Assembly (NCBI GenBank): GCA_044345405.1
Contig: JBIJBE010000002.1
Span: forward strand, 96,001-160,000
Length of the DNA stretch: 64,000 nt
Direction: 5' to 3'
From: Bdellovibrionota bacterium
GTDB lineage: Bacteria; Bdellovibrionota_C; UBA2361; OMII01
Below are positions 17,524 to 33,435 of this stretch, one piece after another; position 1 is the stretch's first letter; every line of letters begins with the position of its first letter. Made by a program: the position numbers and the translations under genes. Under the pieces are notes generated by a model. It saw nothing but the letters and a program-made list of their open reading frames with translations. It did not search any database and was not told the origin of the DNA.

Positions 17524-19542
17524 ATGGCTGATACGCGGGCAATCACTAGGGTCCTGATCGCAAATCGCGGCGAGATCGCGCGAAGGATCGTTCGCACCTG
17601 CACTCGTCTTGGAATCGAGACCGTCGCGGTGTACACCGATGTCGACGCTCATGCGCCGCATGTTCGTGAAGCGACCTTTTCTGAAGCTCTCGGCACACCA
17701 GAGTCATACCTCTCGATTGAGAAGATCCTCGAAGCAGCGAAGCGCTCCAAGGCCGATAGCGTCCACCCCGGTTACGGCTTCCTCTCCGAGAACCCCGACT
17801 TCGCCGCCGCCGTGCGAGACACCGGACTCACCTGGATCGGCCCTACAAGCGAAACAATCCGGAAGCTCGGAAGCAAGACCGCGGCGAAAGAGTTGGCTCG
17901 CCAGGCAAACGCCCCAACATCTCCAACACTCATTCTCCCCCCTGGCTCCACCGCCGACCGCGCGAGCGCCATAGCGAAATTCGGCGAGTCCGTTGGGTTC
18001 CCACTAATCTTAAAAGCGGCAGCGGGAGGTGGAGGTCGCGGCATGCGCTTCATCAATCCCGAGAGCGACATCGCCATGGAGCTCGACAGCGCGCAGCGAG
18101 AATCGCTCAAAGCGTTCGGAAGCGATGAGGTCTTCGTTGAGAAGTGCATCACCCCCGCTCGGCACATCGAGGTGCAGATCGTAGGTGACACACACGGGAA
18201 CGTGGTGGCACTGGGGACTCGCGATTGCTCGCTGCAACGAAGTAATCAAAAGATCATCGAGGAGGCACCGGCCGTACATCTCGCACCGGGAAGCGAAGCG
18301 AAACTCCTTGAGGCGGCGACGAACCTCGCTCGCGCGGCCGGATACACAAGCCTCGGCACCGTTGAGTTCCTCTACGGGCAAGATGGGTCACCCTATTTTC
18401 TTGAGGTAAACACACGACTTCAGGTTGAGCATCCCGTCACAGAACTCGTCACTGGGCTCGACCTCGTGGAGCTTCAGCTCCGCATCGCAGCCGGCGAGAC
18501 CCTCGCGGCGTGCGGCGTCACCCACACACCGGAACCACAGGGGCACGCCATCGAGGCGCGATGGTGCGCTGAGGAGTTCACCGACCGATTCACCACAGCG
18601 ACCGGCATCGTGCTCGATATCGAGGTACCGCAGCCAGCGGCCCGCGGCACGATGGTGCGTGTCGATAGGGGCGTTGAGCCGTGCTCGGAGGTTACCCACT
18701 ACTACGATTCACTCATCGGGAAAGTTATTGTCTACGCCCCCTCACGAGATCGCGCGATTGAGGCGCTCGATGACGTGCTCTCACGTTCCCGACTCAGTGG
18801 CGTTCGAAACAATCGCAACCTCCTCTTGCATCTCCTTCGAACGCCAGAGTTTAAGGCGCTTCAGCACACCGTACAGGGAACGAAGCTCCTGCTCCCTTCA
18901 AGTGAGCAAAACTCAGCGATCGTTCGTGAGGCGCACGTTATCGCGGCGGCGGTTCGATGCGCGACACCAAACTCCGCGTGGGCGTCGCAGGGACCATGGT
19001 CCTCGACGACAGCGCCCGATGCACACATCTCCTATCCATGGACAACGAGCGAGCACGGGAACGCTCTCTCAAGCACAACGAGACAAGACGGAAATTCATT
19101 CGTCGTGTCGGTAGACGGGCATTCCGAAACCATTACTTTCACGGAAGGGCCATTCCTGAACGGACTCGGCACCACAGCGACCCTTTCTCTCAACGGAGGA
19201 GCACCAAGCTCCGTATCGCTCTACCGCGACGGAAATGACCTCTGGGTTCATTCGAACCGAGGAACGGTCGTGCTCCACCAACCAGCGATCGGCGAACGCT
19301 CAGGCGGTGCCGGTAGTAGCTCAGCAAACGAGATCCGCTCAACGATCCCCGGTAAGGTCGCCGCGGTTCTCGTCAAAGAGGGAGATACCGTCGAGCAAGG
19401 AGCTACCCTGCTCGTGCTTGACTCTATGAAGATGGAGCATCCGATTCGCGCGACGATGAATGGAAAGGTGGCAAGCTTGCCGCTGCAGGTCGGCACGATC
19501 GTACACGCGGGAGCCCTGCTCGTGTCGCTAGAACCACATTAA
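17524..19542 (+). CDS. biotin carboxylase / biotin carrier subunit (methylcrotonyl-CoA carboxylase alpha-like)
   Basis: LIANRGEIA, HPGYGFLSEN, GGGGRGMR, FLEVNTRLQVEHPVTE, C-terminal biotinyl domain with SMKME. Confidence 0.92.
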   Translation: MADTRAITRVLIANRGEIARRIVRTCTRLGIETVAVYTDVDAHAPHVREATFSEALGTPESYLSIEKILEAAKRSKADSVHPGYGFLSENPDFAAAVRDTGLTWIGPTSETIRKLGSKTAAKELARQANAPTSPTLILPPGSTADRASAIAKFGESVGFPLILKAAAGGGGRGMRFINPESDIAMELDSAQRESLKAFGSDEVFVEKCITPARHIEVQIVGDTHGNVVALGTRDCSLQRSNQKIIEEAPAVHLAPGSEAKLLEAATNLARAAGYTSLGTVEFLYGQDGSPYFLEVNTRLQVEHPVTELVTGLDLVELQLRIAAGETLAACGVTHTPEPQGHAIEARWCAEEFTDRFTTATGIVLDIEVPQPAARGTMVRVDRGVEPCSEVTHYYDSLIGKVIVYAPSRDRAIEALDDVLSRSRLSGVRNNRNLLLHLLRTPEFKALQHTVQGTKLLLPSSEQNSAIVREAHVIAAAVRCATPNSAWASQGPWSSTTAPDAHISYPWTTSEHGNALSSTTRQDGNSFVVSVDGHSETITFTEGPFLNGLGTTATLSLNGGAPSSVSLYRDGNDLWVHSNRGTVVLHQPAIGERSGGAGSSSANEIRSTIPGKVAAVLVKEGDTVEQGATLLVLDSMKMEHPIRATMNGKVASLPLQVGTIVHAGALLVSLEPH

Positions 19543-19563
19543 ACAACCTATGAATTGATAATT

Positions 19564-20209
19564 ATGAAGCTCGGAACAATCAGCATTGTACTCGTGCTCC
19601 CGGCTCTACTTGGTGCGCTTGCGTGGCATTCTTATGTTCTATTTCTCTATCGGGTTGCCTATCGGTTGGCTTGGGTTGAAGAGAATCTTATCCTCTCGGG
19701 AATCCTCGGTTGTACCTATCTCTTCCTAGGCCTCTGCGCCCTTGCACTCACGAGCTATTACGCGGTCCGCACAGCATCTAAGTGGCTAATCGTGAAGATG
19801 GGGCTGTCAGCACTACTCACACTATGCTCGGTCGCATCGTTTTTTGTAGGCGCGTACCTTGGCGAGCTCTGGGCCGTTACTGGCGCCAAATCATATTTGG
19901 ACGGCGTTGTTCGCTCCGCTAATGACTATCTGCAAAAAAAATGGGGAATATCCCGAGTCCTTAGATAAGCTCGACCTCCCTGCGATGCCGCGCTTAATAA
20001 TGGAATCAGCAGACAGCAACAAAAAGCAAGAGCACAAGTCTTTCACTGTGCCGTACCAACGAATTGATGGTCGATCAATCATAGTGGGCTTCGAATACAG
20101 GAAGGGTTTCAGCAACGACGACTGCGCAAGTTATAAATGGACCACAAATAACCCGAGGTGGGTGTGCACATGCCACGGCTGTCTTACCGACAATCCGAAT
20201 CGACGATAA
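19564..20209 (+). pseudogene. membrane hypothetical protein split by one extra base in an A8 tract
   Basis: ORF 19555-19968 (3 TMs) and ORF 19859-20209 join as ...ANDYLQKNGEYPESLDKL... if the A8 at 19934-19941 were A7. Confidence 0.65.
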
Positions 20210-20276
20210 GCTCTCTGGCAATAACCCCATCCCGGGATCTGGATTCAGGTTGCCTCGATAAACCGCGGCAAGGCGA

Positions 20277-20645
20277 TCACTGGTAGATCGTTTCCTTCAG
20301 CCGCTTCAACAACATCAACATAAAGCCAGATGAACAGAGGTGAGGAAAGAAGCTTTGATTGAGCTTTTCAGCGTTGACTGCCACGGCAACAAGCTTAGTG
20401 ACGGTCGCCGCATCTGCTGAAAGGATCTTCTCCGGAGACTGAAGAAAGGGCCTCAGCTCCTCAATCCAGCCCATCCAATCAACATCCTCGGAGCACAGAC
20501 CGCTCCCCTTAATGCACTCTTGCAGATCTCTCACCTGCGGAGAGTATTCACCGGTAGTGATATACACTGAATGTGCGTCACGTAATCCGTCAGTCTCAAG
20601 GAGTGGAATAAAATCGAATAATCGCGTCAACGCCGCCTCGTCCAT
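20277..20645 (-). CDS. DUF6508-like hypothetical protein
   Basis: Likely start MDEAALTRL at 20645; YSPQV...DWMGW...ILSAD...GFMLMLLKRL pattern recalled for DUF6508. Confidence 0.65.
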   Translation of the reverse strand: MDEAALTRLFDFIPLLETDGLRDAHSVYITTGEYSPQVRDLQECIKGSGLCSEDVDWMGWIEELRPFLQSPEKILSADAATVTKLVAVAVNAEKLNQSFFPHLCSSGFMLMLLKRLKETIYQ

Positions 20646-20739
20646 TTTCTCGGTATACCACACGAGAGCGTGTTCGACTATGACACAGAGAAGCCTTCCT
20701 TGCCCCTGAGCAGACCGCGGGCGACGTGAGAGGTGAAAA

Positions 20740-20920
20740 TCACCGAGCGTCGTTACAGAGGTCAGTAAGGAGCGATACAACGTTAGCGTTAAACTCGCGT
20801 TGATTCCGCAACGCTGGACCGAACACGGCGTTGATGACCGGTTGAAGCATCCGCTTACCGAACACGATAAACGGCCCAATGATCTTACGGTGCGAGGTCG
20901 GAGTCTGGGGCCGAACATCG
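20740..20920 (-). pseudogene. displaced 3' end (59 codons plus stop) of the gene at 30902-31315
   Basis: Translates DVRPQTPTSHRKIIGPFIVFGKRMLQPVINAVFGPALRNQREFNANVVSLLTDLCNDAR*; colinear with 30902-31082 with no indels and 3 aa differences. Confidence 0.9.
20864..20920. repeat. 57-bp perfect direct repeat, left island boundary
   Basis: acgataaacggcccaatgatcttacggtgcgaggtcggagtctggggccgaacatcg, identical to 31026-31082. Confidence 0.92.
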
Positions 20921-21173
20921 AAGGACCTCCCGCATCGCCTTTATAAGCGCACAGGAGGGAAGATCATCGAAGCGTAGAGTCGCTGATTCCAACCCCTGCC
21001 CCACAGCGCATACTCGGGATCTGCCGAGGAATTCTCAAAAGACACGCCTGCTGCGGCGGAGTCGATTTTTCGAACACTCCAAGAGGCTGGGAGGCGGTAC
21101 CCGATATACATACAGGAAGAATAAAGAAACCGCCGCCCTACTCATCCCTACCTCAGGGCTCATCCCTGGCGCA

Positions 21174-22175
21174 TCACCGCCGCGCAACGGCCCTCTCGAT
21201 TGGATAGAAGGAGAACGAGTATTCCTTTAAAACTGCAATCACCGCCCAGTCCCTAAGGACGTGCCCGAATGCCTCTTGCAGCGAATCGGTAAGCTCTCCT
21301 ATCTGCTCGGGGCTCTCCACTTCACAACGCATGATATAGTCCCAGACACCGACGAGTCGCATCATACTCACAATCGAACGCTGCTGTTGGCACCATCGCA
21401 AGATACTCTTGTGCATCTCAGCAGAGAGTGTATTGCTTGCAATCTGAATTCGGTATACTTGCATGCCAAGGCGAGCCGGCGAGACGAGATACGGAAAACC
21501 TGTTATAACCCCACTCTTAGTCAAAGCCTGTATTCGATAACCAATAGTAGACGAAGGGAGTCCGGTAGCGGAGCTTATATTTCTTAGCGATTCCGCGCCG
21601 CGACCACCTAATACTCGCAATATAGCGTGGTCGACCTCGTCGATGCTGACGATCCCAGACCCCGGCAGCGCCTCAAATCTTCGGCTATGCTTCACGCCCT
21701 CCGGGGCGAGGTATTTCCTCCCGAACCACCAGTATCCGATCGAGAGGCACGAATCTCTCGTATCGAACATGCCCGGCGCGCGAGCGTCGAGCTCCTCTAG
21801 GCGCCGAGCCACGTCAAGCGTATTCATCGCCTCAATACCGATATGATAGTCATACTTACCGGCCGTGCGATAAAACCATCTGATCCCGGGGGATTCCGTC
21901 ACAGCCTGGGTAAGTCTTGCGCTGAGACTCTTTTTATCCTTCGCTGGAGAGAAGAAAACCTCAAGCTCGGTCGCCCCGAGCCGGTAGGTGTCGACAAAGA
22001 CAGCCTGCGAGACAAGCCCCTCCTTGGCCCAACGGCTCATCTTCCCCTGGAGAGCGCTCTCTTTTATCCCTAGAGATTTTGCGAGCGAGCTCAACGGCTC
22101 GTTACCATGGAACTGAAGCGAGTACAGCAGGAACTTGTCTACATCTGAAATTTTTTGAATTTGTTGTCTTTTCAA
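21174..22175 (-). CDS. Lrp/AsnC-like transcriptional regulator with two tandem HTH+RAM units
   Basis: ISDVDKFLL...LSSLAKSLGIKES...EGLV and IDEVDHAILRVL...SLRNISSATGLPSSTIGYRIQAL...GVI; RAM-like GKYDY and GVWDY. Confidence 0.82.
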   Translation of the reverse strand: MKRQQIQKISDVDKFLLYSLQFHGNEPLSSLAKSLGIKESALQGKMSRWAKEGLVSQAVFVDTYRLGATELEVFFSPAKDKKSLSARLTQAVTESPGIRWFYRTAGKYDYHIGIEAMNTLDVARRLEELDARAPGMFDTRDSCLSIGYWWFGRKYLAPEGVKHSRRFEALPGSGIVSIDEVDHAILRVLGGRGAESLRNISSATGLPSSTIGYRIQALTKSGVITGFPYLVSPARLGMQVYRIQIASNTLSAEMHKSILRWCQQQRSIVSMMRLVGVWDYIMRCEVESPEQIGELTDSLQEAFGHVLRDWAVIAVLKEYSFSFYPIERAVARR

Positions 22176-22290
22176 TCGACTCTCTACTTACAAAAGACGT
22201 CAATAACTAGCGCTCTAAACTAAAAACCGAAGCCCGACAAGAATAAAGGATGCCAGAGGATTTGTTATAAAACCGATACGAGAGAGAAGA

Positions 22291-22320
22291 AGGGAAGTGA
22301 ACCCCATGGCTCACTTCCCT
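22291..22320 (-). terminator. hairpin after csrA (possible terminator/attenuator)
   Basis: 10-bp stem AGGGAAGTGA/TCACTTCCCT followed on the minus strand by pyrimidine-rich TCTTCTCTCTC. Confidence 0.55.
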
Positions 22321-22325
22321 GCTGG

Positions 22326-22493
22326 CTACCGTCCTGCGTCAGGGCGCGTTCTGGTCTCCTGCCTGAAAACTGGAACATTCCTTGGCGCTTCGATTCCAAG
22401 TTTAACCCTTCCGCGTTCAATTTCTAACACGGTAATTTTGATGGAATCACCAATGACTATTACCTGATCACTACGCCGCGCAAGAACCAACAT
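22326..22493 (-). CDS. csrA: carbon storage regulator CsrA/RsmA homolog
   Basis: MLVLARRSDQVIVIGDSIKITVLEIERGRVKLGIEAPRNVPVFRQE; GGGAG RBS; start at ATG 22493. Confidence 0.9.
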   Translation of the reverse strand: MLVLARRSDQVIVIGDSIKITVLEIERGRVKLGIEAPRNVPVFRQETRTRPDAGR

Positions 22494-22523
22494 TAGACTA
22501 TTCTCCCAAAAAAACTTCAAAGG

Positions 22524-22651
22524 CCCTCTGAGAAACCGTCGTCCCTCCTCTGGCATAAGAGTCAGAGCGACATACCGTTAGAGATAGAGAAAGTACAACC
22601 GTCAGTCAAACGACATGAACGGTGACCAACAATCGGCTCGAATATTGGACA
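22524..22651 (-). promoter_or_regulatory. conserved operator/promoter/leader element, copy 1
   Basis: TGACCAA-N15-TTGGACA at 22623-22651; minus-strand TTGACT-17-TATCTC; leader ACTCTTATGCCAGAGGAGGGACGACGGTTTCTCAGAGGG. Confidence 0.75.
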
Positions 22652-22717
22652 AATACAGAGGCCTCGCCAACGAATATCTCAGGAGAGTGCGTAGCGAGAA
22701 TAAACGTAAATCAGACA

Positions 22718-24958
22718 TCACTCAATTCTCTCCGCCACCCAGTTGTACTCAAACACGCCACTCCGAGAACTAGATGAGCCGGTGACAACGGTTTTTCCAG
22801 ACAGCGCAGAGCCGTCCGCGGACAGAACTGCAGAGCTACTCAGAGTGGCTCCGTTGATGGACTTCGCAAGCAAGTTTACGTCAAAGCCGTGTTCCCGAGG
22901 CGTAACCGAGACCGATTCAAAGTGAGTAAAGAGAACCTCGCCGCTCAACCCCGATATACCCGTTACGCCAACCAGAGTGATAGAAGAGCCAATGAATCCT
23001 CTTTGGCTCTCGTCGAATATGAAATAACCCTCCCCCTCGGCGGGCGCCGTAAGGGACCATTTCCAAACCCCGGCCAAGTGAGAAGGAGTTGATGCGGAAT
23101 TGGACTTGCCGGCTGATAGCGGAGGATTCTGCTGCGGACCGGCGTCGACACGCGGAGTATCTGCTTGCTCCATCAACGGCTGGAGTGGTTCTGCCACAGT
23201 ATTCTCGAGCCAGTCGACTGAGCTGTAGGTTCTTAACTGACCGTCCACTAATCGCTCAAACCCTTTCGTCGCTACCAGCGCCCCCGGTTCGGTCTTATCC
23301 GCAATGTAAAACAGGGCGGTGACTGAAACATCAGAGAGTCGCCGCACCTCGCCTTCTTGCGACACGCCATCTCTATTCGCGTCGAACCACAGGCCCAATT
23401 TGTCGAGTTCGATGCCGTCTATCTTTCCATTTCTATCAGTGTCCATGGTCGCGAGCGCTTCGTACCCATCTTTCCACGGAATGGCGGTGTGTTGGTTGTC
23501 CGAAGCGGGCTGCTTTCCGCCGAAGGTCCAACTGCCGAATAGCTGTTCGGCCGAGGTGATTGAACCGGTGTGTTCAGCGTCAAAAACAAGGACAGGGAGA
23601 GACGCTGAACCTCTCCACAACCACGTATCCTGCTTCGAGTGAGGGTTAAGCTTGAATGACACCATCGTGCTCGGAAGCAGAGAGTAGTCACCAGCCCATA
23701 CCAGGGAGATCGGCGTAGCCATTTCAGCGTAGTAAGAGATAGATCCGCACGACATTTTGTCGGGCGTGATCGTCGAGACTGGAATCAGCTTGCAATTTTG
23801 ATCAATGTAGAGAGAGCCCGCCTTACACCCCGGCTCTTTGTCCTCTTTCGAGCCTCCCCCGATCTGTGCCTCACCTGCATGACCCAGGGAGTTCGCGGCA
23901 CCGTAACCTCCGAGGCAGTTGATGTACTGTTTATTTTGCTCGTAACTGTCTCTTGTCCGCTCGTTCTTCTCGAGAAGGTGTATCCAGAGGTAGCTGGTAA
24001 AGCACGTGGCGTACTTCTCCATCATTTCCTTGCCGGCCAGATCTACGCCCTTGGCCTGGGTGTATCCGAAATCTTGGTTATGACAGGTCTCGAACGCTTT
24101 TCTAGCAACGTCTTCGAAACACTGCAATGATTGCGCGCCCTCACTTGGTGATATCTTCAGATCTCCCAACTTGTGCGTGCTTCCGTGCTTGAAATTAAGT
24201 CCGTAGTAGCTGCAACTAGGGGTTGGAGTAGCCGTGCTTGTCGCCGTCGCCGTTCGAGTGGGTGTGAGCGTCGGAGTCCGGGTAGGAGTTCTCGTAGGCG
24301 TCGCCGTTCGAGTGGGCGTAAGCGTCGGAGTCCGGGTAGGAGTTCTCGTAGGCGTCGCCGTTCGAGTGGGTGTAAGCGTCGGAGTCCGGGTAGGAGTTCT
24401 CGTAGGCGTCGCTGTTCGAGTGGGTGTAAGCGTCGGAGTCCGGGTAGGAGTTCTCGTAGGCGTCGCTGTTCTAGTTGGGGTAGGCGTCGAGGTTGGTGTT
24501 TTCGTCCCCGAGCATCCGACTCTTCGGAGGTAGTTCAAGATGACTGCAGAATCGAGGGGCGTTACACTGCCATCCCGGTTTACGTCTAAAGCTCTCGAAC
24601 TTTCACTAACGGGGCCTGGCCCCTTCTTGATGAGAAACAGGTCGATCGCTTGAGCGTCCGTTTCATTAACCACGCAATCCTGATTGACATCATAGGTTGA
24701 TAAGACTCTGTCGCCGTTACAATCCAGCGGCGCGCAAGGCTTCGCTGTCGCCGAGCGGGTAGGAGTTGGGTCGAGCCGTGAGGGCGCATCCTCTGGGCTG
24801 CGAACGACCGGCGAGGCGTTACAAACCCAAGTCACGGGGTATGATACGGCCAAAAGACACGCGATCCCTAGGGCGCACAGGCGACTGCTGCAATAAAGAA
24901 CAACATTGGCGACCGCACCGATTAAGCCTTCAGCGAAGTCGTTCAGCTTGATCACCAT
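22718..24958 (-). CDS. large exported protein: dockerin-like EF-hand pair, PT linker, Cys-rich region, DxDxDG Ca-binding domain
   Basis: [13 protein letters not shown]...[13 protein letters not shown]; ([18 protein letters not shown])n; TPISLVW...EQLFG...[17 protein letters not shown]...[15 protein letters not shown], a pattern typical of large secreted Ca-binding proteins. Confidence 0.8.
24245..24470 (-). repeat. 54-bp coding tandem repeat (about 4 units) encoding a Pro/Thr linker
   Basis: Unit cgttcgagtgggtgtRagcgtcggagtccgggtaggagttctcgtaggcgtcgc. Confidence 0.9.
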
Positions 24959-25239
24959 CCCCTATTCTCCTCTAAGGCGTATAGCAGCCAAGGATCCCTC
25001 GTGCACCTCCCTAAACATCACGGAAGAAGAATGCAAAAAACTTCCGAAAACCATCCGCGACCAGAGGGAACGGCAAATGCCGGGCGGTGGCCACGGCACC
25101 ACAAAATACGCGAGTCGGCTCGCCCTCCCGATGCTAGCCATACCATACTAACTGTTGGGGGCTGTCGTCCGTTCTCGGACGAAACTTTACGTTTACAGCC
25201 AGTTTTGAGAAAGACCAAAAAATAGGAAGATTTCGGGTG

Positions 25240-25860
25240 CAAGAATGGGTAATGCGAAGGCACCGAACACATGGTCACCTTGTTTCAGCACCATACATCC
25301 TCAGGGAACCTTGCCTGCGGACTACGTTCATACCAGTGAGAGTAGCGGGCTTCCTTACCCAGGTTTCTCAGGGCTTTGAGAACGATCCCAGTGGGCAAGG
25401 TCATGCTGGAGGGGATTCCGAACGACTTTGCCCTTTACCGCGGTCAAACTAGCGGCGGCGGTCGCTTCTTGTGAGGGAAGGTATTTAAAGAGCTGTGGAT
25501 TAAGGGCGGTGCGTTAGCACTAGGTATTTGATCAGTCCGCCTGGTGTTCATGCGCCGGAAACACGAAAGCCCTCAGTGATTGTGGAGTTCAGACCGGAGC
25601 GGTCTTGAATGGACTGCCGGTCTCTGACGTGAAAGCGCTAACTGAACTGTCAGTTAACTGTTAATGCGCGTCACTTCCTTGGCTGGTAGAGCTGGGTTCG
25701 TCAGCCGCTGCCTCGCACCAGAAAACTGACCTTGCCATCAAAAGAGCCCCTTACCAGTTTGCCCAGGGCCGGCAATGCCCCTCAAAGATCCCGGTGTCGG
25801 CGCTGATCGGGTTTGTGGCTCTCGACGGAACGCTTTCCGCCAAACTGGAGGAGGGGGTGA
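25240..25860 (-). pseudogene. highly decayed remnant of the Lrp-like regulator, copy 2
   Basis: Ordered peptide islands resembling 21174-22175: LLQFGGKRS~SLQFHGNEP, TSETGSPFKT~SSATGLPSST, SQSPEKPG~VESPEQIG, SHYPF~SFYPI; many stops and frameshifts; lies downstream of a csrA remnant. Confidence 0.4.
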
Positions 25861-26175
25861 CGGTATACTGCGATGTCCTTGAGGAACTCAGAAACCATAC
25901 TCGCCGCACTAACGCGAACCTCAGTGTCTATTCTTGTTGGACATCCAAGTGAGCGCTGCGCAACTAACGCGGTACAAAATGAATCAAACTCCGAAAGCCA
26001 TTTGGAGGCAGATACTTCCGCTAATAACAAGGGGTCGAGCACCGAAAGTTCGATTGCAACGAACGACTGCTGGCACTCCTTGACAAGACTGGCCTGCGAC
26101 AAACCCGACACTCCATCGTCTTGCGTTATCAATCACGGCGAACACTCGGATAGCTCTGCCGTCGATGTTCCGGTG

Positions 26176-26289
26176 CTATTTTTTGGGGGCAGCAGAACAG
26201 GCGCCTCCGATCTTCAACACAAACCGCTCACTTCTTATTAAATCAGCTATCAGGATTACGTCGCCAGCTTTTCGGTTCAGACCTAATAG
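26176..26289 (-). pseudogene. csrA: csrA remnant, copy 2
   Basis: LLGLNRKAGDVILIADLIR...APKK* aligns to MLVLARRSDQVIVIGDSIK...APRN; start codon lost; nearly the same distance from the conserved element as the intact csrA. Confidence 0.65.
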
Positions 26290-26320
26290 TCCTATTTTCA
26301 TCCTCACAAACACTCGAAAA

Positions 26321-26448
26321 CCCTCTGAGAACCGTAATCCCTCCTCTTGCATAAGAGTCAGACCGACACACAACTTGGAGCTAGAGAAACCCAAGATCTC
26401 TCGCAAACTACGTAAAGTGCATACAACTAATAGCCCGAACATCGGTCA
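26321..26448 (-). promoter_or_regulatory. conserved operator/promoter/leader element, copy 2 (more diverged)
   Basis: CATACAA-N15-TCGGTCA at 26420-26448; TTGCGA-17-TAGCTC; leader ACTCTTATGCAAGAGGAGGGATTACGGTTCTCAGAGGG. Confidence 0.7.
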
Positions 26449-26513
26449 AACGTGAGTCAGGACCAAACCCGAGCGGAACTCCCAGGAGCACCCCCCTCAG
26501 TTTGACAGGGGCA

Positions 26514-29500
26514 CTAAGAACACTGACTGTTAAAGCGAGGAAGCTGCGTTGATACCTCCAGAGTTCGATTATACAAGGTTGTTCCCGTGGCAGCACGGGC
26601 CGCATCGCTTGAACTAAGGCTACGGCGCCGTGCTTTCTTAAGTGTCGACGCCGCTCGCTTCGTGAGGCGGTGAAGCTGCTTCGCGCGACCGGTTATCTCA
26701 GTGATATTTGATGAAGTCTGAATGGCCGCGCATCCAACGCATGATTTAGTCACCAGCGGGAAGCTCGACCATATGCTTTTCCATTGCGCAAGGTAGAGGT
26801 CCTGGGCCTCCTCCTCGTATGAAGCAGCGAGGTCCAAAAAGGTTGACGCGTTCGATACGCGTCTGATGCGACTCGCTAAATAGCGCACGGCAGACCGCTG
26901 TCGCGAGGCGAGATTATCGAGCTGTGACAACGTATCTTTGTTGTCGGCTTCGTTACACGAGATCTCTTCAACGGTACATCGCTGAGTCTGCGCCGAGGCC
27001 TCGACGGCGGCACTACCTAATGTCCACGTGATCACACTCGACGAGCTGGTGTTGTCACTTTCCGGAGTCGCGAAAGGGACAACCATCGTGAAGACATTAC
27101 TAAACGCGCCTCGAAAGAAGGTCGTCGGTTGACCCGGATTCGCCACGCCTGGATCCACGGAATTCCGCGGGCCATAAGGAATTGCAACAGAGGATAGTTC
27201 ATCACTCCTGTAACCGAAGTGTGCTAACAGGCTCCCGTCTTGCAGGACATCCACACACTCGGCAATCGGTGTTACCTTGTATTGTGTGTCAGTTTGAGTC
27301 TCTGTTGCTGACGTTGTCGCCGTAGGCGTCGGTGTCTTTGTCAGCGCTATGACCTCGCATGTTGCCGACGGTGTCGCCGTGGGTGTCGGTGTCTTCGTCG
27401 GCATTATGACCTCGCATGTTGCTGAAGGTGTCGCCGTAGGTGTCGGTGTCTTTGTCGGCACCACCTCGTCGCACTCGACATTGTCTTTTGGTGAGGAACA
27501 TCCCGGATCCAATCCATCAATCAGACCATCTCTGTCGTCATCAACGCCGTTCTGACATTGAGAGGTGCCATCAGCCTCATTAGTATCTTGAGAACTTGAG
27601 CATCCTGGGTCAGCCAAATCGATAAGGCCGTCTCGATCATCGTCCGTACCGTTTTGGCACTGAGAGGTTCCGTCACCCTCATTATTGTCTTGAGGGCTTG
27701 AGCATCCTGGGTCAGCCAAATCGATAAGACCATCTCGATCATCGTCCGTACCGTTCTGACACTGAGCAACTGGCGATGCCTCGTCGCTATCATCAGGTCC
27801 ACTACAAGCGAAGTCCTGCAGGTCGATCGCACCGTCTCTGTCGTTGTCCACACCATCCGAGCACTGACTCGCAATTTGGAAGCGATACGCGACCTTTGCG
27901 GCCTGCCACGGACCCTTCTGGCCACCTTGCCCGATTCCTCGTACGAACCACTGGTACTGCCCTCGCGGCAAAACCGTTGTTGGCGTGTAAGAAGTTGACG
28001 TCAGGCTTGCCTGCCTAATGACCACCTGGCCGTTCGCGGGGGAGATTTGTCTAACCACGATCTCGTAAGTTTTTGCCCCGGCAGCGGCCTTCCAGCGAAA
28101 AGCTACTTCAGGAGCTGAAATTACTCCGTTCTGAGGAGGGAATACCTGCGTTGGTAAGCCGATAGGTTGCGCACGAGCCTCGTTGTTGAGGGTACGGTCG
28201 TATGTCGCACTGCTCGTGAGGTCACGCCAGCATCCGGGGTCGGACGCGTCCGTCACTCCGTCAGAATCGTTATCCGAGCCATCCTGACACTGTGAGGTGC
28301 CATCAGCCTCATTAGTATCTTGGGGACTTGAGCATCCTGGGTCAGCTATATCGACAAGGCCATCTCGATCATCGTCCGTACCGTTCTGACACTGAGCAAC
28401 TGGTGATGCCTCGTCATTATCATCAGCTCCACTACAAGAGAAGTCCTGCAGGTCGATTACACCGTCACCATCATTGTCTAATCCGTCCGAGCACTGGCTT
28501 GCAATTTGGAAGGTAAACGCGACATTTTCGGACTGCCAAGGACCTTTCTGGCCGGCTTGACGGACTGCTCGTACAAACCATTGGTACCTCCCCCGCGGCA
28601 AAGATACCAGTGGCTTGTAAAACGTCGAGGTTATGTTTGCCGTTCTTATGACCTCCTGGTTTGCTTGAGGAGAGACCTGTCTGACCGAGACCTCATAAGA
28701 TTGCGCTCTAGCAACAGCCTTCCAGCGGAAAGCTAATTCGGGCGCCGTAATCACAGCGTTCCGAGGTGGAAACACCTGGGTTGGTATCCCTAGTTCTGGT
28801 TGCGAGCGAGCTTCGTTGTTGAGGGTACGATCGTAGGTCGAGCTGTTCCCGACGTCACGCCAGCACCCAGGATCTGCCGCATCGACCACTCCGTCGAGGT
28901 CGTTATCTGAGCCATCCTGACACTGAGAGGTTAGTAGACCTTCGTCGTTTAGGTTGGGGTCATATGAGCTAGGGTTTTCAGGGTTAGCCCAGCATCCGGG
29001 GTCATATCGGTCAGACAGGCGATCCCCATCGTTATCGAGACCATCGTCGCATTCCGTCCCACCTGAGCACAGATACGAGAAGTAAGCGTTTACACATCCA
29101 TTATTAAAGCCAAGAACCGCCTGGCCGGTGGTGGGATCATACAAAGCTCCCTGGATGCTCGTGGAACTGCACTTAGAAGAGAACGTGTTAGTACCGGCGG
29201 CACACCTTCGATTTCTTCCGATAGTTTGACTTCCAGACGCTTGAGTTGATTTGAAAGAAGTTAGATGAGCGGTCGTCGCTGTTCCCGGCTGGGCGCATAT
29301 ATATCCACATTCCGAGATTCGGCCAGCTCCGCTTTGGGACGCGGTAATAACCCCATCCTCCCTGTTGTAGGAACATTCTACCGTTCCAGTACCGGCGCCG
29401 CCCTGTCTGACCTTTTGGAAATTTGCCACACTGACGACGCAAGTGAGACCAGCACCAATTGAAGTACCAGAGGAAACATATCCTGCCGTAAATTTTTGAC

Positions 29501-29825
29501 TTGCTCCTCGAGAATTATGGCACACATATACGCCCTTTCCGTCGGCGTATCGATTGCTGGCAATGGAGACACGGTTATTAGCAAGGCGTACCTGGAAGAA
29601 CGGCTCCTGATTCGCGGAGTTGTCGGATCGAACCCAAAGATAATTCCCCACAGAGGTAAAGCACTGGTCATAACCATCAGTGGACACGCTTTCTGTTGCC
29701 GAGATGTAGCCCATCTTAACGCCGCTATCCCGATATATCTCCTGGGCATTGATAACCGCCCCCCCAAGGAAGACTGACAAAAGTGAACAGAGCGTTGCGA
29801 TTCGAAGAGATAATCTTGTTTTCAT
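26514..29825 (-). CDS. 1103-aa secreted repeat protein: Cys-rich N-domain, about 9 C-x-(D/N)G-x-D-x-D-x-DG repeats, two FN3/Ig-like domains, PT linker, C-terminal domains
   Basis: Signal peptide; QCQNGTDDDRDGLIDLADPGCSS repeats; FRWKAV...SYEV...LPRGRYQWFVRA twice; TKTPTPTATPSAT repeats. Confidence 0.85.
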   Translation of the reverse strand: MKTRLSLRIATLCSLLSVFLGGAVINAQEIYRDSGVKMGYISATESVSTDGYDQCFTSVGNYLWVRSDNSANQEPFFQVRLANNRVSIASNRYADGKGVYVCHNSRGASQKFTAGYVSSGTSIGAGLTCVVSVANFQKVRQGGAGTGTVECSYNREDGVITASQSGAGRISECGYICAQPGTATTAHLTSFKSTQASGSQTIGRNRRCAAGTNTFSSKCSSTSIQGALYDPTTGQAVLGFNNGCVNAYFSYLCSGGTECDDGLDNDGDRLSDRYDPGCWANPENPSSYDPNLNDEGLLTSQCQDGSDNDLDGVVDAADPGCWRDVGNSSTYDRTLNNEARSQPELGIPTQVFPPRNAVITAPELAFRWKAVARAQSYEVSVRQVSPQANQEVIRTANITSTFYKPLVSLPRGRYQWFVRAVRQAGQKGPWQSENVAFTFQIASQCSDGLDNDGDGVIDLQDFSCSGADDNDEASPVAQCQNGTDDDRDGLVDIADPGCSSPQDTNEADGTSQCQDGSDNDSDGVTDASDPGCWRDLTSSATYDRTLNNEARAQPIGLPTQVFPPQNGVISAPEVAFRWKAAAGAKTYEIVVRQISPANGQVVIRQASLTSTSYTPTTVLPRGQYQWFVRGIGQGGQKGPWQAAKVAYRFQIASQCSDGVDNDRDGAIDLQDFACSGPDDSDEASPVAQCQNGTDDDRDGLIDLADPGCSSPQDNNEGDGTSQCQNGTDDDRDGLIDLADPGCSSSQDTNEADGTSQCQNGVDDDRDGLIDGLDPGCSSPKDNVECDEVVPTKTPTPTATPSATCEVIMPTKTPTPTATPSATCEVIALTKTPTPTATTSATETQTDTQYKVTPIAECVDVLQDGSLLAHFGYRSDELSSVAIPYGPRNSVDPGVANPGQPTTFFRGAFSNVFTMVVPFATPESDNTSSSSVITWTLGSAAVEASAQTQRCTVEEISCNEADNKDTLSQLDNLASRQRSAVRYLASRIRRVSNASTFLDLAASYEEEAQDLYLAQWKSIWSSFPLVTKSCVGCAAIQTSSNITEITGRAKQLHRLTKRAASTLKKARRRSLSSSDAARAATGTTLYNRTLEVSTQLPRFNSQCS

Positions 29826-29864
29826 GACGATATTTGGACCTTTGTAGTCATCCTTTGCCGAGTT

Positions 29865-30059
29865 TCACTGTTTAGTGGCACCAATCTTTCTTAAGAAGGT
29901 CGACAAGTCGTTAACCCGACCTTCCCACACACCTTCCGTAAAACCCGCCAATCCCTTCTCCGTTGTTCGGCACATCGACATATGAGGGGCTCCGGGCCCA
30001 GCTACACGCCGATTCCCTTGAGAGACGAAAGAACGAAGCATTCTGGAGGACCTGCTCAA
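29865..30059 (-). pseudogene. possible N-terminal remnant of the Lrp-like regulator, copy 3
   Basis: MLRSFVSQGN...EGRVN...RKIGATK resembles LLYSLQFHGN...EGLVS...YRLGATE; lies downstream of a csrA pseudogene. Confidence 0.4.
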
Positions 30060-30126
30060 ACAACCTTTTTTTGAGACTCAAAGGGAACGCACACCCGTGC
30101 CCCCCGCTGCTAGCTGACGTCCCCAG

Positions 30127-30280
30127 TCAGAAGTCCTTTTCCCCCTGCCTGACCACGGGAACATTCCCTTGGGCTCTGGATGCCCAATTACATTCTGTCG
30201 CCCTTGACGTTTAAAACCGTAACTCCGACGCTTCAACGAACAAGAATTGCCTCATCATGTTTCCGGGCTATCGCCAATCT
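30127..30280 (-). pseudogene. csrA: csrA pseudogene, copy 3
   Basis: RLAIARKHDEAILVR*SVGVTVLNVKGDRM*LGIQSPR/NVPVVRQG: colinear with the intact csrA, with two in-frame stops, one frameshift and no start codon. Confidence 0.8.
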
Positions 30281-30309
30281 GTGCGCACTCTTCTTAAAAA
30301 CGTCAAAAG

Positions 30310-30438
30310 CCCTCTGAGAAACCGTCGTCCCATCTCCGGCATAAGAGTTGAATCGACCTACAGAACGGAATTATAGAAAACAAAAATCTCTGTCAAACGA
30401 CGTAAGGTGTGACCAATTAACGGCACGGATCTTGGTCA
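30310..30438 (-). promoter_or_regulatory. conserved operator/promoter/leader element, copy 3
   Basis: Perfect TGACCAA-N15-TTGGTCA at 30410-30438; TTGACA then TATAAT (15-bp spacer) or TAATTC (17-bp spacer); leader ACTCTTATGCCGGAGATGGGACGACGGTTTCTCAGAGGG. Confidence 0.75.
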
Positions 30439-30479
30439 AAATAGTATTCCGCCCTCCCCACAGCGACTCGCGCATGAAC

Positions 30480-30901
30480 AGTTGCGATTGGCTTCACAAA
30501 CTCAGTTTTTGGGTTCTATTTCGGTTACCATCACATCGTTACTCAGCAAGCACGAAACACTACCAACCCTTTTTCCCATCCACCGTGACGGATACGACCT
30601 CGGAATGCACTCCGAGCGAGGACCGGTAATTCTTAACAAAGCGACGACCGAGGAGCTCACGGGGGACGCGCAAGCGACACAGCGAACAAGATCCGATCCA
30701 CGCTCCCCGAGAAAGTTGCGGCGATGCTCGTTAATGCTGGAGATATCGTTGAACACTGCGCGATACTGCTCGTGCTCGACTCGATGAGGATGGAGTACCC
30801 GATTTGGACGTCGGTACGTGGGAAGATCTCGACTCGTTAAGCTTACACCTGGAACGGTCGTGCAAACGGGGTTGCCTCTTGAGGCAGTTGAACAGGAATA
30901 A
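30480..30901 (+). pseudogene. decayed copy of the 3' end of the carboxylase alpha gene (biotinyl domain)
   Basis: IHRDGYDLGMHSERGPVIL / NKIRSTLPEKVAAMLVNAGDIVEHCAILLVLDSMRMEYPI / PGTVVQTGLPLEAVEQE* against LYRDGNDLWVHSNRGTVVL / NEIRSTIPGKVAAVLVKEGDTVEQGATLLVLDSMKMEHPI / VGTIVHAGALLVSLEPH*; frameshifted, biotin Lys changed to Arg. Confidence 0.85.
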
Positions 30902-31315
30902 TTACCGCGAGTCGTTACTCAGGTCGGTCAACAGCGACACCACATTAGCGTTAAACTCACGCTGATTACGGAGCGCAGGACCAAACACCGCGTTAATAAC
31001 CGGTTGAAGCATTCGCTTCCCGAGAACGATAAACGGCCCAATGATCTTACGGTGCGAGGTCGGAGTCTGGGGCCGAACATCGGCGGAATAGATCTGACAG
31101 AGCCGTCTGAGAAGCTCAACTCGCTCTGGCGTCGCGGTGAATCCATCTCGGGTCACTGAGAATGAGAGCTGTGCGATATGGCGCTCATCCGCCTCGCTGA
31201 ACTTACCAGCGGCGCGCAGGTCGGCCACCCGTCGGGCGAGCGCATCGCGAACATCGGTGTTATTCTCCCCCGCGACGGAGAGCCAGTTTGACTGTGGTGA
31301 TGTAGGAGCTGCCAT
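30902..31315 (-). CDS. conserved hypothetical protein (island target; 3' end supplied by the island)
   Basis: Likely start MAAPTSP at 31315; TSHRKIIGPFIVLGKR...NQREFN motif recalled from small proteins/domains in polysaccharide loci. Confidence 0.75.
   Translation of the reverse strand: MAAPTSPQSNWLSVAGENNTDVRDALARRVADLRAAGKFSEADERHIAQLSFSVTRDGFTATPERVELLRRLCQIYSADVRPQTPTSHRKIIGPFIVLGKRMLQPVINAVFGPALRNQREFNANVVSLLTDLSNDSR
31026..31082. repeat. 57-bp perfect direct repeat, right island boundary
   Basis: Identical to 20864-20920. Confidence 0.92.
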
Positions 31316-31328
31316 AGCGGCGAGCGTA

Positions 31329-32258
31329 TCACAAGAACCGGTGGCGATGAAGCTCCACAAAACGGAGGCGGTGGAACTCCTCCCTTTTGGTGATATATCC
31401 GGCATCTAGCCCCGCCATCGCGGATACCAACATCCCGGCCCCCTCAAGCAAACCAGCCCCCGTTTGGTAGATCCGGATACCATCAGCGAACACCACTTCC
31501 CCCCGCTTTACCGCCGGTAAGGAGTCCCATTGGGGCGCATCCTCAAGCTTTCGAAGGTACCGGACGCTCTCTTCCAGCGTCTTCCCGCGCGGGGCAACCA
31601 TAATCGCGTCAGGGGCGAATGCCGCCAGCTCCTCCCATGTGGTCGGCTTGCTGATTTCGCGCTGCTCCGAATTCATTGTGCGGCCCGACACAAGTCGAAT
31701 AATATCAGGGATCCAACATCCCGCGATCTCCAAGGGCTCAACGCTTGAGAGCACAACCGTTTTCTTGTTTCGCAACCGCTCGTAGAGGTTCCGCCCCCAA
31801 TCAAGGAGCTGCGATTTTAGGCGCTGCGCTCGATCACGTCCGGTTGGCCCCATGCCGATAAGCGTTCCCAGATCACCGTAGGCATCAAGGAGATCGTTAA
31901 GGCTCGCGATATCAACGGACTTTACCCGAACGTTCTTCATCCAGTGGTGCTGGAAATATTCCTGCGCAAACCCGCAGAAGTCGTCGGGGTTATCAGAAAC
32001 GACCGTTGTAAGAATTACGGAGGGAGCGGCCTCTGTGAGCTTGTCGATATCGACCGGGATCGCTGAGAGGCCCGCCTGAAGCTTATCGCCCTCGACGCTA
32101 CCGGAGGGCTTGGGAGCTGAGGACCTGGTAACGACCGTTGGCGTATAGTCACTCGAGGGTGGCTGAGGGCAGAGGTGAGTCACGCCGAAGACCTTCCGCC
32201 CGTCGTGGAGAGCGTACAGTATCTCGGTAAGAAATGGGTTCAGGGAAACGATCTTCAT
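31329..32258 (-). CDS. BtuF/TroA-like ABC substrate-binding family protein
   Basis: MKIVSLNPFLTEILYAL...GVTH, AGCWIPDII, WEELAAFAPD, WDSLPAVKRGEV. Confidence 0.8.
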   Translation of the reverse strand: MKIVSLNPFLTEILYALHDGRKVFGVTHLCPQPPSSDYTPTVVTRSSAPKPSGSVEGDKLQAGLSAIPVDIDKLTEAAPSVILTTVVSDNPDDFCGFAQEYFQHHWMKNVRVKSVDIASLNDLLDAYGDLGTLIGMGPTGRDRAQRLKSQLLDWGRNLYERLRNKKTVVLSSVEPLEIAGCWIPDIIRLVSGRTMNSEQREISKPTTWEELAAFAPDAIMVAPRGKTLEESVRYLRKLEDAPQWDSLPAVKRGEVVFADGIRIYQTGAGLLEGAGMLVSAMAGLDAGYITKREEFHRLRFVELHRHRFL

Positions 32259-32547
32259 CAGCGCCTCGCGGGAAGGAACCTCTTCCACCTCTACCATCGG
32301 CCTAAGAGCTCGGTACCTTAAGAGGGCCCATCACCCGACCCGCAGGCGAGCCCAACCATCAACCCGACAAACCTCTGGAGAATTGGATTTACACAGGAAA
32401 ATCCCACCCTCACCGCCACAACCACTCTACAACAGCGTTATTGCTCTTGACGGTCGGGCGACCGAGGGGACACTCTAATCACTGTAGTTTTGATTACGTA
32501 TGTGTCGCGGGAACCGTCTCGCCCCTCCTTTTACACTCGAAAGCACC

Positions 32548-33435
32548 ATGACCCCCTCGAACCGCCCCCTCCTCCGCTCCCGCCTTGCTCGAGGATTCGC
32601 CGTTGCGTTGCTCGTATGTTCGGTCACAACCCTTCTCGCCTGCGCCACCCGTAGCTCTAAGTTCTCCTCCCTTCTCAATCAAGGGATCATGCCGGTTAGT
32701 GAGGAGAACGCCTTCATGGGCGCTAACCTCTTCCTCGCTCGAGAGATGGAGCAGAGCGTATACCTTTACAACTTCATGAAGGAACGGGGCGCCCCGCAGG
32801 GAATCGAACTCAAGGGAGACAGCGAGGACGATGTAGAGGCGCATTTCTACTACACCTCAGGCCCGGAGGAGTACCTCGCCAAGCCAGCCCCTCGACCACG
32901 ATTCAATCGAAACAAAGATACACGCAGGGAGTGGATCATTATCGGACCGTTCGCGGTCGATAAGGAGCGGTATCGCGAGATTCAACAGCTAGATAAAACT
33001 AATGGCGGCTCCTTTGAGATATTCGGTCGTCGGGAGTTCCTCGGACAGCAATCGAGCCCAGGCACACAGGTGGCTCTTCGTCCCGTATTCGTCCCGACTC
33101 CAATTCCTCCAAAGAAACACGTCGCGAAGAAGAAGCCGAGCGTTGATACCTCAGCCTCATCCACGATCAACTCCAAAGAGCCTGTAAACTTCGATCAACA
33201 GGCGCTCAAAGAGGCGAAGGAGATGGCGCCACGGGATGGACAGGGTGACATCGTACACACCGTGACTTCCAAGACCGAAACCCTTCAGTCGATCTCGCAG
33301 TGGTACACCTCGAAATCCACGAGCGCCGCTGAGGTTGCCAAGAAGAACGGACTTCCTGAGGATGCAAAGCTTAGTCCTGGGGCGAAGGTTATCGTTCCGA
33401 AGAGCTTGATTACCAATCCGAAGCGGATGCAATAG
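32548..33435 (+). CDS. LysM-domain lipoprotein
   Basis: Lipobox LLAC; C-terminal HTVTSKTETLQSISQWY...NGL...LSPGAKVIVP. Confidence 0.8.
   Translation: MTPSNRPLLRSRLARGFAVALLVCSVTTLLACATRSSKFSSLLNQGIMPVSEENAFMGANLFLAREMEQSVYLYNFMKERGAPQGIELKGDSEDDVEAHFYYTSGPEEYLAKPAPRPRFNRNKDTRREWIIIGPFAVDKERYREIQQLDKTNGGSFEIFGRREFLGQQSSPGTQVALRPVFVPTPIPPKKHVAKKKPSVDTSASSTINSKEPVNFDQQALKEAKEMAPRDGQGDIVHTVTSKTETLQSISQWYTSKSTSAAEVAKKNGLPEDAKLSPGAKVIVPKSLITNPKRMQ

Follow-up and report, generated by a model that had tools for sequence, protein, structure and literature searches.

The DNA described here (the window) is a stretch of 64,000 nt from contig JBIJBE010000002.1 of a Bdellovibrionota bacterium, and the features of interest lie on its minus strand between about 21 and 31 kb. 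A non-coding element of ~145 nt occurs there three times (E1, 22510–22653; E2, 26314–26450; E3, 30296–30440), as delimited by repeat-finding and blastn and in agreement with repeat families D6 and D9. An earlier note on this DNA, made from the sequence alone, had reported three copies of 128 bp on the minus strand, and apart from the length this is borne out. Each copy heads a csrA gene or what is left of one: the csrA behind E1 is intact, those behind E2 and E3 have decayed, and the two decayed copies precede genes for large, apparently secreted proteins of 746 and 1103 aa (p746 and p1103). We tentatively propose that the decayed copies live on as regulatory leaders of these two genes.

By blastn, E1 and E3 are 74.5% identical over 145 bp, E1 and E2 84% over 70 bp, and E2 and E3 71% over 140 bp. 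With each copy as query, no others are found in the 3.59-Mb, 85-contig genome to which the window belongs, and when 571 bp of copy 1 were searched against 41 genomes, the one match was to the window's own (G000), with none in the 40 relatives. The element is therefore not a dispersed repeat, and the possibility that it is a genome-wide repeat unlinked to csrA, named in the earlier note as something that would refute its reading, can be set aside. The three-copy arrangement is reproduced without a single difference by independent public assemblies of lake-water metagenomes, contigs of run X9 spanning 21841–24296, 24531–27624 and 29859–31055. Rfam gave no match at E≤1 within 19000–33000, and a metagenome scan with a pattern for the core of the element gave none either.

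The anatomy of the element is most complete in E3, where an inverted repeat (TTGACCAA, 15 nt, TTGGTCA; arms at 30432–30439 and 30409–30416) is perfect and is followed by the promoter-like hexamers TTGACA (30391–30396) and TATAAT (30370–30375), a core hairpin (30324–30357) and a conserved box (30310–30323). E1 has the same order of parts, with one mismatch in the inverted repeat (arms at 22645–22652 and 22622–22629), the hexamers TTGACT (22604–22609) and TATCTC (22581–22586), the core hairpin at 22538–22571, the box GGTTTCTCAGAGGG at 22524–22537 and a Shine-Dalgarno sequence at 22501–22507. E2 retains the core hairpin (26334–26367) and the box (26321–26333), with the −35/−10-like hexamers and the right arm of the inverted repeat degraded. 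The hexamers of all three copies were read by eye.

The intact csrA (22326–22493, minus strand, 55 aa) begins about 17–30 nt downstream of E1. It matches the CsrA/RsmA family PF02599 (E 1e-20; 73.9 bits against a cut-off of 27; residues 22–68 of a 76-aa open reading frame (ORF)), in line with the reading in the earlier note, and stays below the NCBIfam equivalog cut-offs (NF002469, 64.1 vs 73 bits; TIGR00202, 63.2 vs 70.1 bits). Judged by these matches, the island protein is a member of the CsrA family that does not reach the score of a canonical ortholog. It is an accessory copy, as the genome has two further csrA loci, one linked to fliW (contig C22) and one to mazG (C45); identity to the mazG-linked csrA genes of the genus is 47–57%. 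The residues that we take to be critical in E. coli CsrA (L2, L4, R6, R7, V40, V42, R44) are present by eye, and binding to GGA-bearing RNA is predicted. The gene is followed by a terminator-like hairpin with a 13-bp stem (22291–22320, minus strand), called by the terminator scan and strongly stable (−24 kcal/mol, z −3.65, with none of 200 shuffles as good).

The third csrA is a pseudogene (30127–30277, minus strand) with two in-frame stops and one frameshift, as the earlier note had described. It is recognized by tblastn (40% identity over 37 aa, E 1e-6) and by a hidden Markov model (HMM) built from 15 csrA genes of the genus (E 2.6e-9, residues 2–39, across both stops); the stop codons lie within 30230–30238 and 30184–30193, and a 1-nt insertion further on was seen by eye. 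The counterpart of the terminator hairpin in this copy (30062–30118, minus strand) has decayed as well, being no more stable than shuffled sequence (−14.1 kcal/mol, z +0.21, 116 of 200 shuffles as good). Behind E2, the degenerate csrA claimed earlier at 26176–26289 shrinks to a putative vestige of 17 codons (26236–26286, minus strand), recognized only by its expected, syntenic place and its strand: the HMM aligns residues 2–18 with a score of −1.6 (E 0.8), tblastn finds no match, and the coding region is 43% identical to that of copy 1, compared with 29 ± 6% for unrelated 170-nt pairs aligned likewise.

The homology between copies 1 and 3 runs out near 22226, ~50 nt short of the start, at 22175, of the next gene, which encodes a regulator of the Lrp/AsnC family (lrp); lrp therefore lies outside the repeated unit. 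As far as alignment can delimit it, the unit is a csrA minigene of ~430 nt, made up of the inverted repeat and promoter-like region, the leader, the coding sequence (CDS) and the terminator hairpin, and it ends before lrp. The earlier note had proposed that a regulatory cassette of csrA and lrp was duplicated and its ORFs left to decay. What stands of this is that the csrA unit was multiplied and that two copies lost their csrA; lrp was not included. Lrp-like remnants had also been claimed after both pseudogenes, but tblastn shows none, and a profile HMM of four lrp orthologs, run with filters off, reached no better than E 1.7, so that a repeated csrA-lrp module with Lrp sequence after each csrA copy is not what is found.

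The origin of the element can be traced within the genus. A search with the island CsrA protein has matches in 34 of 35 genus genomes, and the better ones (48–57% identity) are to csrA genes just downstream of mazG; in the window's own genome this locus reads mazG-csrA-ahcY (C45). Upstream of the mazG-linked csrA, 13 loci share −35/−10-like hexamers (by eye), mostly 17 nt apart, and a hairpin composed of a CU-rich 5′ arm, a loop of approximately AUGGCG and a GA-rich 3′ arm (GGAG..GGA), followed by a GGTTTT box. E1–E3 carry this genus leader core, CTCTTATGCC/A-R-GAG..GGGA....GGTTTCTC. In an ungapped alignment of 15 core sequences, pairing in the hairpin register holds for 74% of cells, compared with 52–59% in slid controls, and four of the eight hairpin pairs vary at both positions. 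Eleven cores from other genomes were combined into a profile which, run against the whole genome, ranks E3 first (E 0.012), the C45 mazG-csrA leader third (E 0.057) and E1 fourth (E 0.21); the second rank looks like a chance match in a probable coding region, and E2 falls outside the top 30. A degenerate 17-nt pattern gave 45 matches in the 35 genus genomes vs 22 for the reversed-pattern control, and for 13 of the 45 a csrA, or a remnant of one, follows at a distance of at most 130 nt. Because of the hairpin pairing, the core-profile ranks and the pattern matches near csrA, we conclude from these comparisons that the element is a copy of the genus csrA promoter/leader region, shortened by ~50 nt and with an added upstream inverted repeat. 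RNAalifold, applied to a MAFFT alignment of the 13 genus leaders, returned only a 6-pair downstream helix. Among 52 metagenome csrA loci (at most 65% identity to island CsrA) none has similarity to the element, and none of the 46 with at least 150 nt of upstream DNA has even a relaxed leader motif.

Two other interpretations of the motif were considered and rejected. An ATG in the hairpin loop opens a frame in E1–E3 (in E1 and E2 the csrA frame), but a small leader ORF is ruled out by the codon changes between E1 and E3 (one synonymous and four non-synonymous, by eye) and by the genus leaders, which have ACG or CTG at that site, or an early stop. As for a wider use of the motif before genes other than csrA, most such matches are accounted for by coding 'MAEE...' starts or by a tRNA 3′ end read in reverse complement.

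The three units have not decayed evenly. In a three-way alignment, the leader core (55 nt) is identical at 40/56 positions between copies 1 and 2, 45/56 between 1 and 3, and 33/56 between 2 and 3; the corresponding figures for the csrA CDS are 72/168, 99/169 and 65/169. The core is thus more conserved than the CDS in each pair (Fisher p 3e-4, 0.004 and 0.008, respectively), as the earlier note had observed of the non-coding element, and this alignment understates the similarity of E1 and E2, for which blastn gives 84% over 70 nt. Since the core is better kept than the CDS and the hairpin of unit 3 is lost, it is the CDS, and in unit 3 also the terminator, that decayed in the dead units, and not the core. 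The minimum-energy fold of E1 pairs the conserved box UUUCUCAGAGGG with the Shine-Dalgarno sequence of csrA, which hints at a translational switch in the modelled structure.

The gene downstream of E3 (26514–29825, minus strand) encodes the 1103-aa protein, which has a signal-like N-terminal segment, acidic double-disulfide repeats in nine stretches (NCBIfam NF033662, E 4e-54) and Ig-like domains (Pfam Ig_J). The gene downstream of E2 (22718–24958, minus strand) encodes the 746-aa protein, with a dockerin domain, Pro/Thr repeats, EF-hand-like matches and a family C-terminal domain (Pfam). These are the large exported Ca-binding-repeat genes of the earlier note. Their size, strand and place behind the decayed copies hold; the EF-hand matches of p746 are sub-threshold in Pfam, and the export signals of both proteins were judged by eye. 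The p1103 start follows E3 and its csrA pseudogene at a distance of 300 nt, and the p746 start follows E2 with its vestige at about 1.2–1.3 kb, all on the same strand, which is the layout of promoter capture, i.e., a duplicated, presumably promoter-bearing segment upstream of another gene. The 1.3-kb spacer between the csrA vestige and p746 (24959–26235, minus strand) holds a 116-aa ORF with no Pfam or NCBIfam match; tblastx and blastn found no paralog of the spacer in the genome, and there is no Lrp signal in it. Both cargo proteins belong to large modular paralog families with matches in 35 of 35 genus genomes. The closest relatives of p1103 are in G010:C24 (66–69%) and G002:C151, with 65–76% identity across the two, and that of p746 is in G002:C206 (70% identity over aa 217–745). 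The upstream regions of the closest cargo orthologs and paralogs have nothing in common with the element or the spacers, and the junctions of element and cargo are therefore specific to the island.

All three units and both cargo genes are contained in a strain-variable island of 10,162 bp (20816–30977). A 2074-nt contig of run X20, ~2.7% different and thus of another strain, joins 20815 to 30978 and skips exactly this segment, i.e., it represents the empty site. Five relatives likewise have the flanking core genes adjacent and lack the island: in G044 the order is carboxylase, DUF6508, a 167-aa core gene (p167) and p322, and in G010, G011, G015 and G014 the carboxylase directly adjoins p167. 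The locus thus shows presence/absence polymorphism at a conserved chromosomal site, as a mobile island would, and the suggestion in the earlier note that this csrA sits on mobile or variable DNA is supported. The island ORFs scanned (10 by Pfam and 7 by NCBIfam, the small ORFs in part) included no gene for an integrase, transposase or recombinase and none for transfer, secretion or replication functions, and an integron-like cassette array was discarded as an explanation, there being no integrase-sized ORF with a family match. The GC content of the island (~0.49–0.56) is only slightly lower than that of the flanks (0.55–0.60), and each of 20 lake-water metagenome runs, from as many studies, contains at least 64% of the sampled words.

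Duplicated host sequence borders the island on both sides. Its right end enters the intact p167 gene (30902–31405), and a segment of that gene (30900–31082, minus strand) recurs at the left end (20738–20920, minus strand, 86% identical) as a fragment of the gene's 3′ end; in tblastn with p167 the left repeat shows 90% identity over residues 98–167, with one stop. The right end also carries a leftover piece of the biotin carboxylase gene, from its 3′ end (30579–30804, plus strand), 70% identical to 19220–19446 (tblastx E 2e-16). The pattern of an intact p167 and a carboxylase remnant on the right with a p167 tail on the left would fit a single crossover with circular DNA carrying a junction copy. 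The carboxylase remnant has 66–75% identity to all relatives compared, and no donor can therefore be named.

Taken together, the differential decay and the position of the dead units suggest that they may persist as cis-regulatory leaders or promoters of the two secreted-protein genes, acting on the mRNA of the island; we give this reading a probability of roughly 0.45. The island consists of three tandemly arranged, self-contained csrA expression units of ~430 nt each, of which only the last would still make CsrA, being followed by the strong hairpin and then by the tandem Lrp gene, which was never part of the repeat. In the two upstream units the csrA (in unit 3 also the terminator) has decayed, and the ~55-nt leader core would have stayed under constraint. 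Unit 3 would have become a promoter and 5′ leader for the 1103-aa gene, and unit 2, in front of the 746-aa gene, a leader or an intercistronic RNA element. Expression of the cargo would in this way be tied to the signals that control csrA, plausibly including the binding of CsrA to the GGA-bearing hairpin. In favour of this proposal are the consensus hexamers of E3 (by eye), and for the presumed read-through, the shared strand of units and cargo genes and the terminator scan, which called nothing in either interval from a cargo stop codon to the next element (p1103 to E2, p746 to E1).

Several observations weigh against the proposed leader function. On the minus strand of 20900–31500, promoters of the sigma-70 type were absent from the calls of a consensus scan, the hexamers of E3 have a spacer of 15 nt, and those of E2 are degraded. 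The E3 hairpin is ~500 nt from the p1103 start and that of E2 ~1.4 kb from the p746 start; at distances of 0.5–1.4 kb, direct occlusion of the cargo ribosome-binding sites is therefore unlikely. The p746 gene has a good Shine-Dalgarno sequence of its own and, in the spacer of about 1.2–1.3 kb, possible room for its own promoter. Given this distance and the degraded hexamers, the case for co-option is weaker at copy 2. None of the three leaders folds more stably than shuffled sequence (z −0.21, +0.61 and +0.90), and as the element exists in no more than three copies, limited gene conversion within the core is conceivable. Finally, the island is near-invariant among the metagenome contigs compared, and population data are therefore no test of constraint.

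A broader version of the same proposal is that the csrA minigene served as a portable cassette, copied before acquired surface or secreted genes, with the CDS and terminator then decaying and the ~55-nt core being kept, so that the cargo would be plugged into the CsrA autoregulation of the host, a form of regulatory mimicry. We regard this version as doubtful.

The strongest rival to a leader function is that units 2 and 3 are neutral relics, left by serial duplication of the csrA unit and insertions of cargo, the two copies simply dying and their core having been kept by old, short gene conversion from E1. Conversion is possible between direct repeats 3.8–7.8 kb apart, and the lack of a thermodynamic signal, the decay of the promoter-like hexamers and inverted repeat in E2, and the existence elsewhere of cargo relatives without the element all suit such relics. 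However, the cores differ by 16–29% with scattered changes and no long identical tract, which makes any conversion old, and the same ~55-nt core would have to have been converted independently in E2 and E3 while flanks 10–30 nt away fell to 40–60%. We therefore rate neutral decay as unlikely.

A second rival places the function upstream rather than downstream: the core would be a 3′-end or intercistronic element (an attenuator, leaky terminator, or processing or stabilising hairpin) that closes mazG, p1103 and p746. E2 begins 64 nt past the stop of p1103 and E1 65 nt past that of p746, the motif at the genus locus lies a few tens of nt past the mazG stop, and the hairpin is followed by GGTTT(T)C or, in G002, where the stem is longer, directly by UUUUCGCUU. 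On the other hand, the U-tract is short and mostly not flush with the stem, and the terminator scan called none of the elements. A gap of 460 nt that contains a gene remnant separates E3 from the closest same-strand gene upstream, and unit 3 clearly received its leader, csrA and terminator as one block. An element serving the upstream gene thus seems quite improbable.

It is also possible to see the orphan leaders of E2 and E3, as short RNAs or as parts of mRNAs, as decoys that buffer the CsrA of the island or host in the manner of CsrB/RsmZ sponges on a small scale. The retention of a csrA-specific leader where csrA is dead would suit this role, as would the GGA motifs in the 3′ arm of the hairpin in all three copies, to which E2 adds two more downstream. 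However, each copy has only 2–4 GGA motifs, mostly in the stem arm of the predicted fold and not in a loop, and no terminator defines a short RNA in units 2 or 3. The marks of a CsrB/RsmZ-type sponge, namely membership of a curated RNA family or an abundance of GGA motifs in hairpin loops, are thus lacking, and a decoy role appears very unlikely. Equally improbable is that the element is a DNA operator for the tandem Lrp/AsnC protein of the island, its three copies putting all island genes under this regulator: the inverted repeat upstream of the −35 hexamer in E1 and E3 and the presence of the regulator gene in the island agree with it, but the repeat is degraded in E2, the best-kept part is the transcribed core, the lrp orthologs elsewhere have no such element upstream, and the repeat is not enriched in the genome (four other sites vs ~2.6 expected by our own base-frequency estimate), so that a genome-wide operator was rejected.

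The regulator itself (21174–22175, minus strand, TTG start) has 333 aa and is a two-module member of the Lrp/AsnC family, with helix-turn-helix (HTH) and RAM/AsnC_trans_reg modules occurring twice in one chain, in keeping with the double-HTH Lrp-like gene that the earlier note placed after the intact csrA. Pfam assigns AsnC_trans_reg to residues 86–139 and an AsnC-type HTH to 178–218, NCBIfam a LysM model to residues 11–139 in two stretches and Lrp/AsnC models to 176–292, and full-length Lrp/AsnC chains of the PDB align to 168–299; the N-terminal HTH is weak (MarR, E 0.003). Four full-length orthologs of ~50% identity were found (two in G014, one in G002 and one in a further metagenome-assembled genome), none with a csrA or a sequence resembling the element upstream, although two of the four loci have only ~450 nt of upstream DNA on their contigs. 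None of the 52 metagenome csrA loci has an lrp relative within the available flanking DNA. Hence the CsrA+Lrp pair, taken in the earlier note as a unit, is not conserved, and on present sequences the adjacency of csrA and lrp is peculiar to the island among the genomes searched. The tandem Lrp/AsnC family as such is expanded in the genus and order: 35 of the 41 genomes have matches, the most in any one being 22, and the window's own has nine.

Parts of this arrangement have precedents. CsrA paralogs are common, and a single genome can have as many as 15. In Legionella, csrA-like genes occur inside integrative conjugative elements (PMC4471563), and plasmid pQBR103 carries the CsrA-family protein RsmQ (PMC9928087). 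As in those cases, an extra CsrA-family gene is found on variable DNA beside the core copies of the host. Unlike them, the island shows no transfer, integration or replication genes, it is flanked by duplicated host sequence, and its csrA unit is triplicated with two copies dead.

The Cit+ rnk-citT case in E. coli is an established example of promoter capture by duplication. Laboratory studies also describe the activation of horizontally acquired genes by promoter capture through tandem duplication (PMC11111574, PMC6614815). In both those studies, as described, and the island, a duplicated promoter-bearing segment ends before a foreign or silent gene, the promoter here being a predicted one. 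The laboratory duplicates are intact, whereas the island is natural and old, with the regulator gene and terminator decayed and the leader core kept.

CsrA of E. coli autoregulates its synthesis via GGA sites in the csrA leader. The island csrA likewise has a GGA-bearing leader before it and a Shine-Dalgarno sequence with GGA (GGGAGAA in E1), but there is no sequence relationship to the E. coli leader, the GGA of the island hairpin is in a stem arm, and binding by CsrA is a prediction. Elsewhere, CsrA is titrated by the RNAs CsrB/CsrC and RsmY/RsmZ and by decoys in mRNA leaders. A CsrA-type leader without a translated gene could bind CsrA in a comparable way, but the island leaders differ from these RNAs in having far fewer GGA motifs and in lacking both an Rfam match and a defined short transcript.

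The open-access literature searched gave no account of a csrA minigene that is present in triplicate and has kept its leaders. Mobile csrA paralogs and promoter capture by duplication are already known; the combination with a decayed gene and a kept leader would be new. If the favoured reading is true, the locus would be a natural example of a later stage of capture, in which horizontally acquired genes have been wired into a post-transcriptional regulon. Host behaviour is known to be rewired when mobile DNA brings in additional copies of CsrA. The leader motif upstream of the mazG-linked csrA, itself without an Rfam match, belongs to a genus of uncultured lake bacteria.

The insertion site seems to be active beyond the island itself. 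Between the carboxylase and p167 (19555–20709) lie a 137-aa membrane-like ORF (19555–19968) and a DUF6508 gene; the latter is also present in G044, and both are absent in G010, G011, G015 and G014. Given this presence or absence by genome, the intergenic site is a spot of recurrent gene gain and loss. Loose ends at 19832 and 19890, seen in contigs from runs X9 and X19, point to another strain-level replacement in or next to the 137-aa ORF.

Within the cargo genes there are internal repeats, consisting of 54-nt Pro/Thr units in p746 (24219–24488) and 57-nt units in p1103 (27303–27473), the latter gene also having an internal duplication at a spacing of 630 bp (27535–27664 vs 28267–28396). The ribosome-binding region of p746 (24956–24972, GAGGAGAATAGGGGATG) and that of csrA (22494–22507, GGGAGAATAGTCTAATG) share the 9-mer GGAGAATAG, which may be due to chance.

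The fliW-linked CsrA of the window's genome (L032, G000:C22, 1482–1943 and 967–1485, minus strand) has 153 aa, with a C-terminal extension of ~100 aa past the CsrA domain, and the weaker csrA matches in other genus genomes (32–40% identity) are mostly surrounded by open frames of 119–182 aa. In G007:C179 (L078), a sequence resembling the E3 core (CTTATGCCAGAGATGGG, then GTTCTCC) is found behind TTGACG, ~80 nt upstream of a gene resembling pntA (transhydrogenase alpha) and without a csrA; the pntA of the window's genome has no such site.

Members of the tandem Lrp family are mutually only ~20–28% identical. The closest ortholog of the island lrp (L014, G014:C288, 445–1422 and 3510–3881) has a partial second copy, comprising the C-terminal 124 aa, 2 kb downstream, so partial duplications around lrp also occur in a relative. 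In G008:C5 (53962–56086), a tandem-Lrp paralog is followed on its own strand, after ~1.3 kb, by a csrA paralog, in the opposite order to that of the island.

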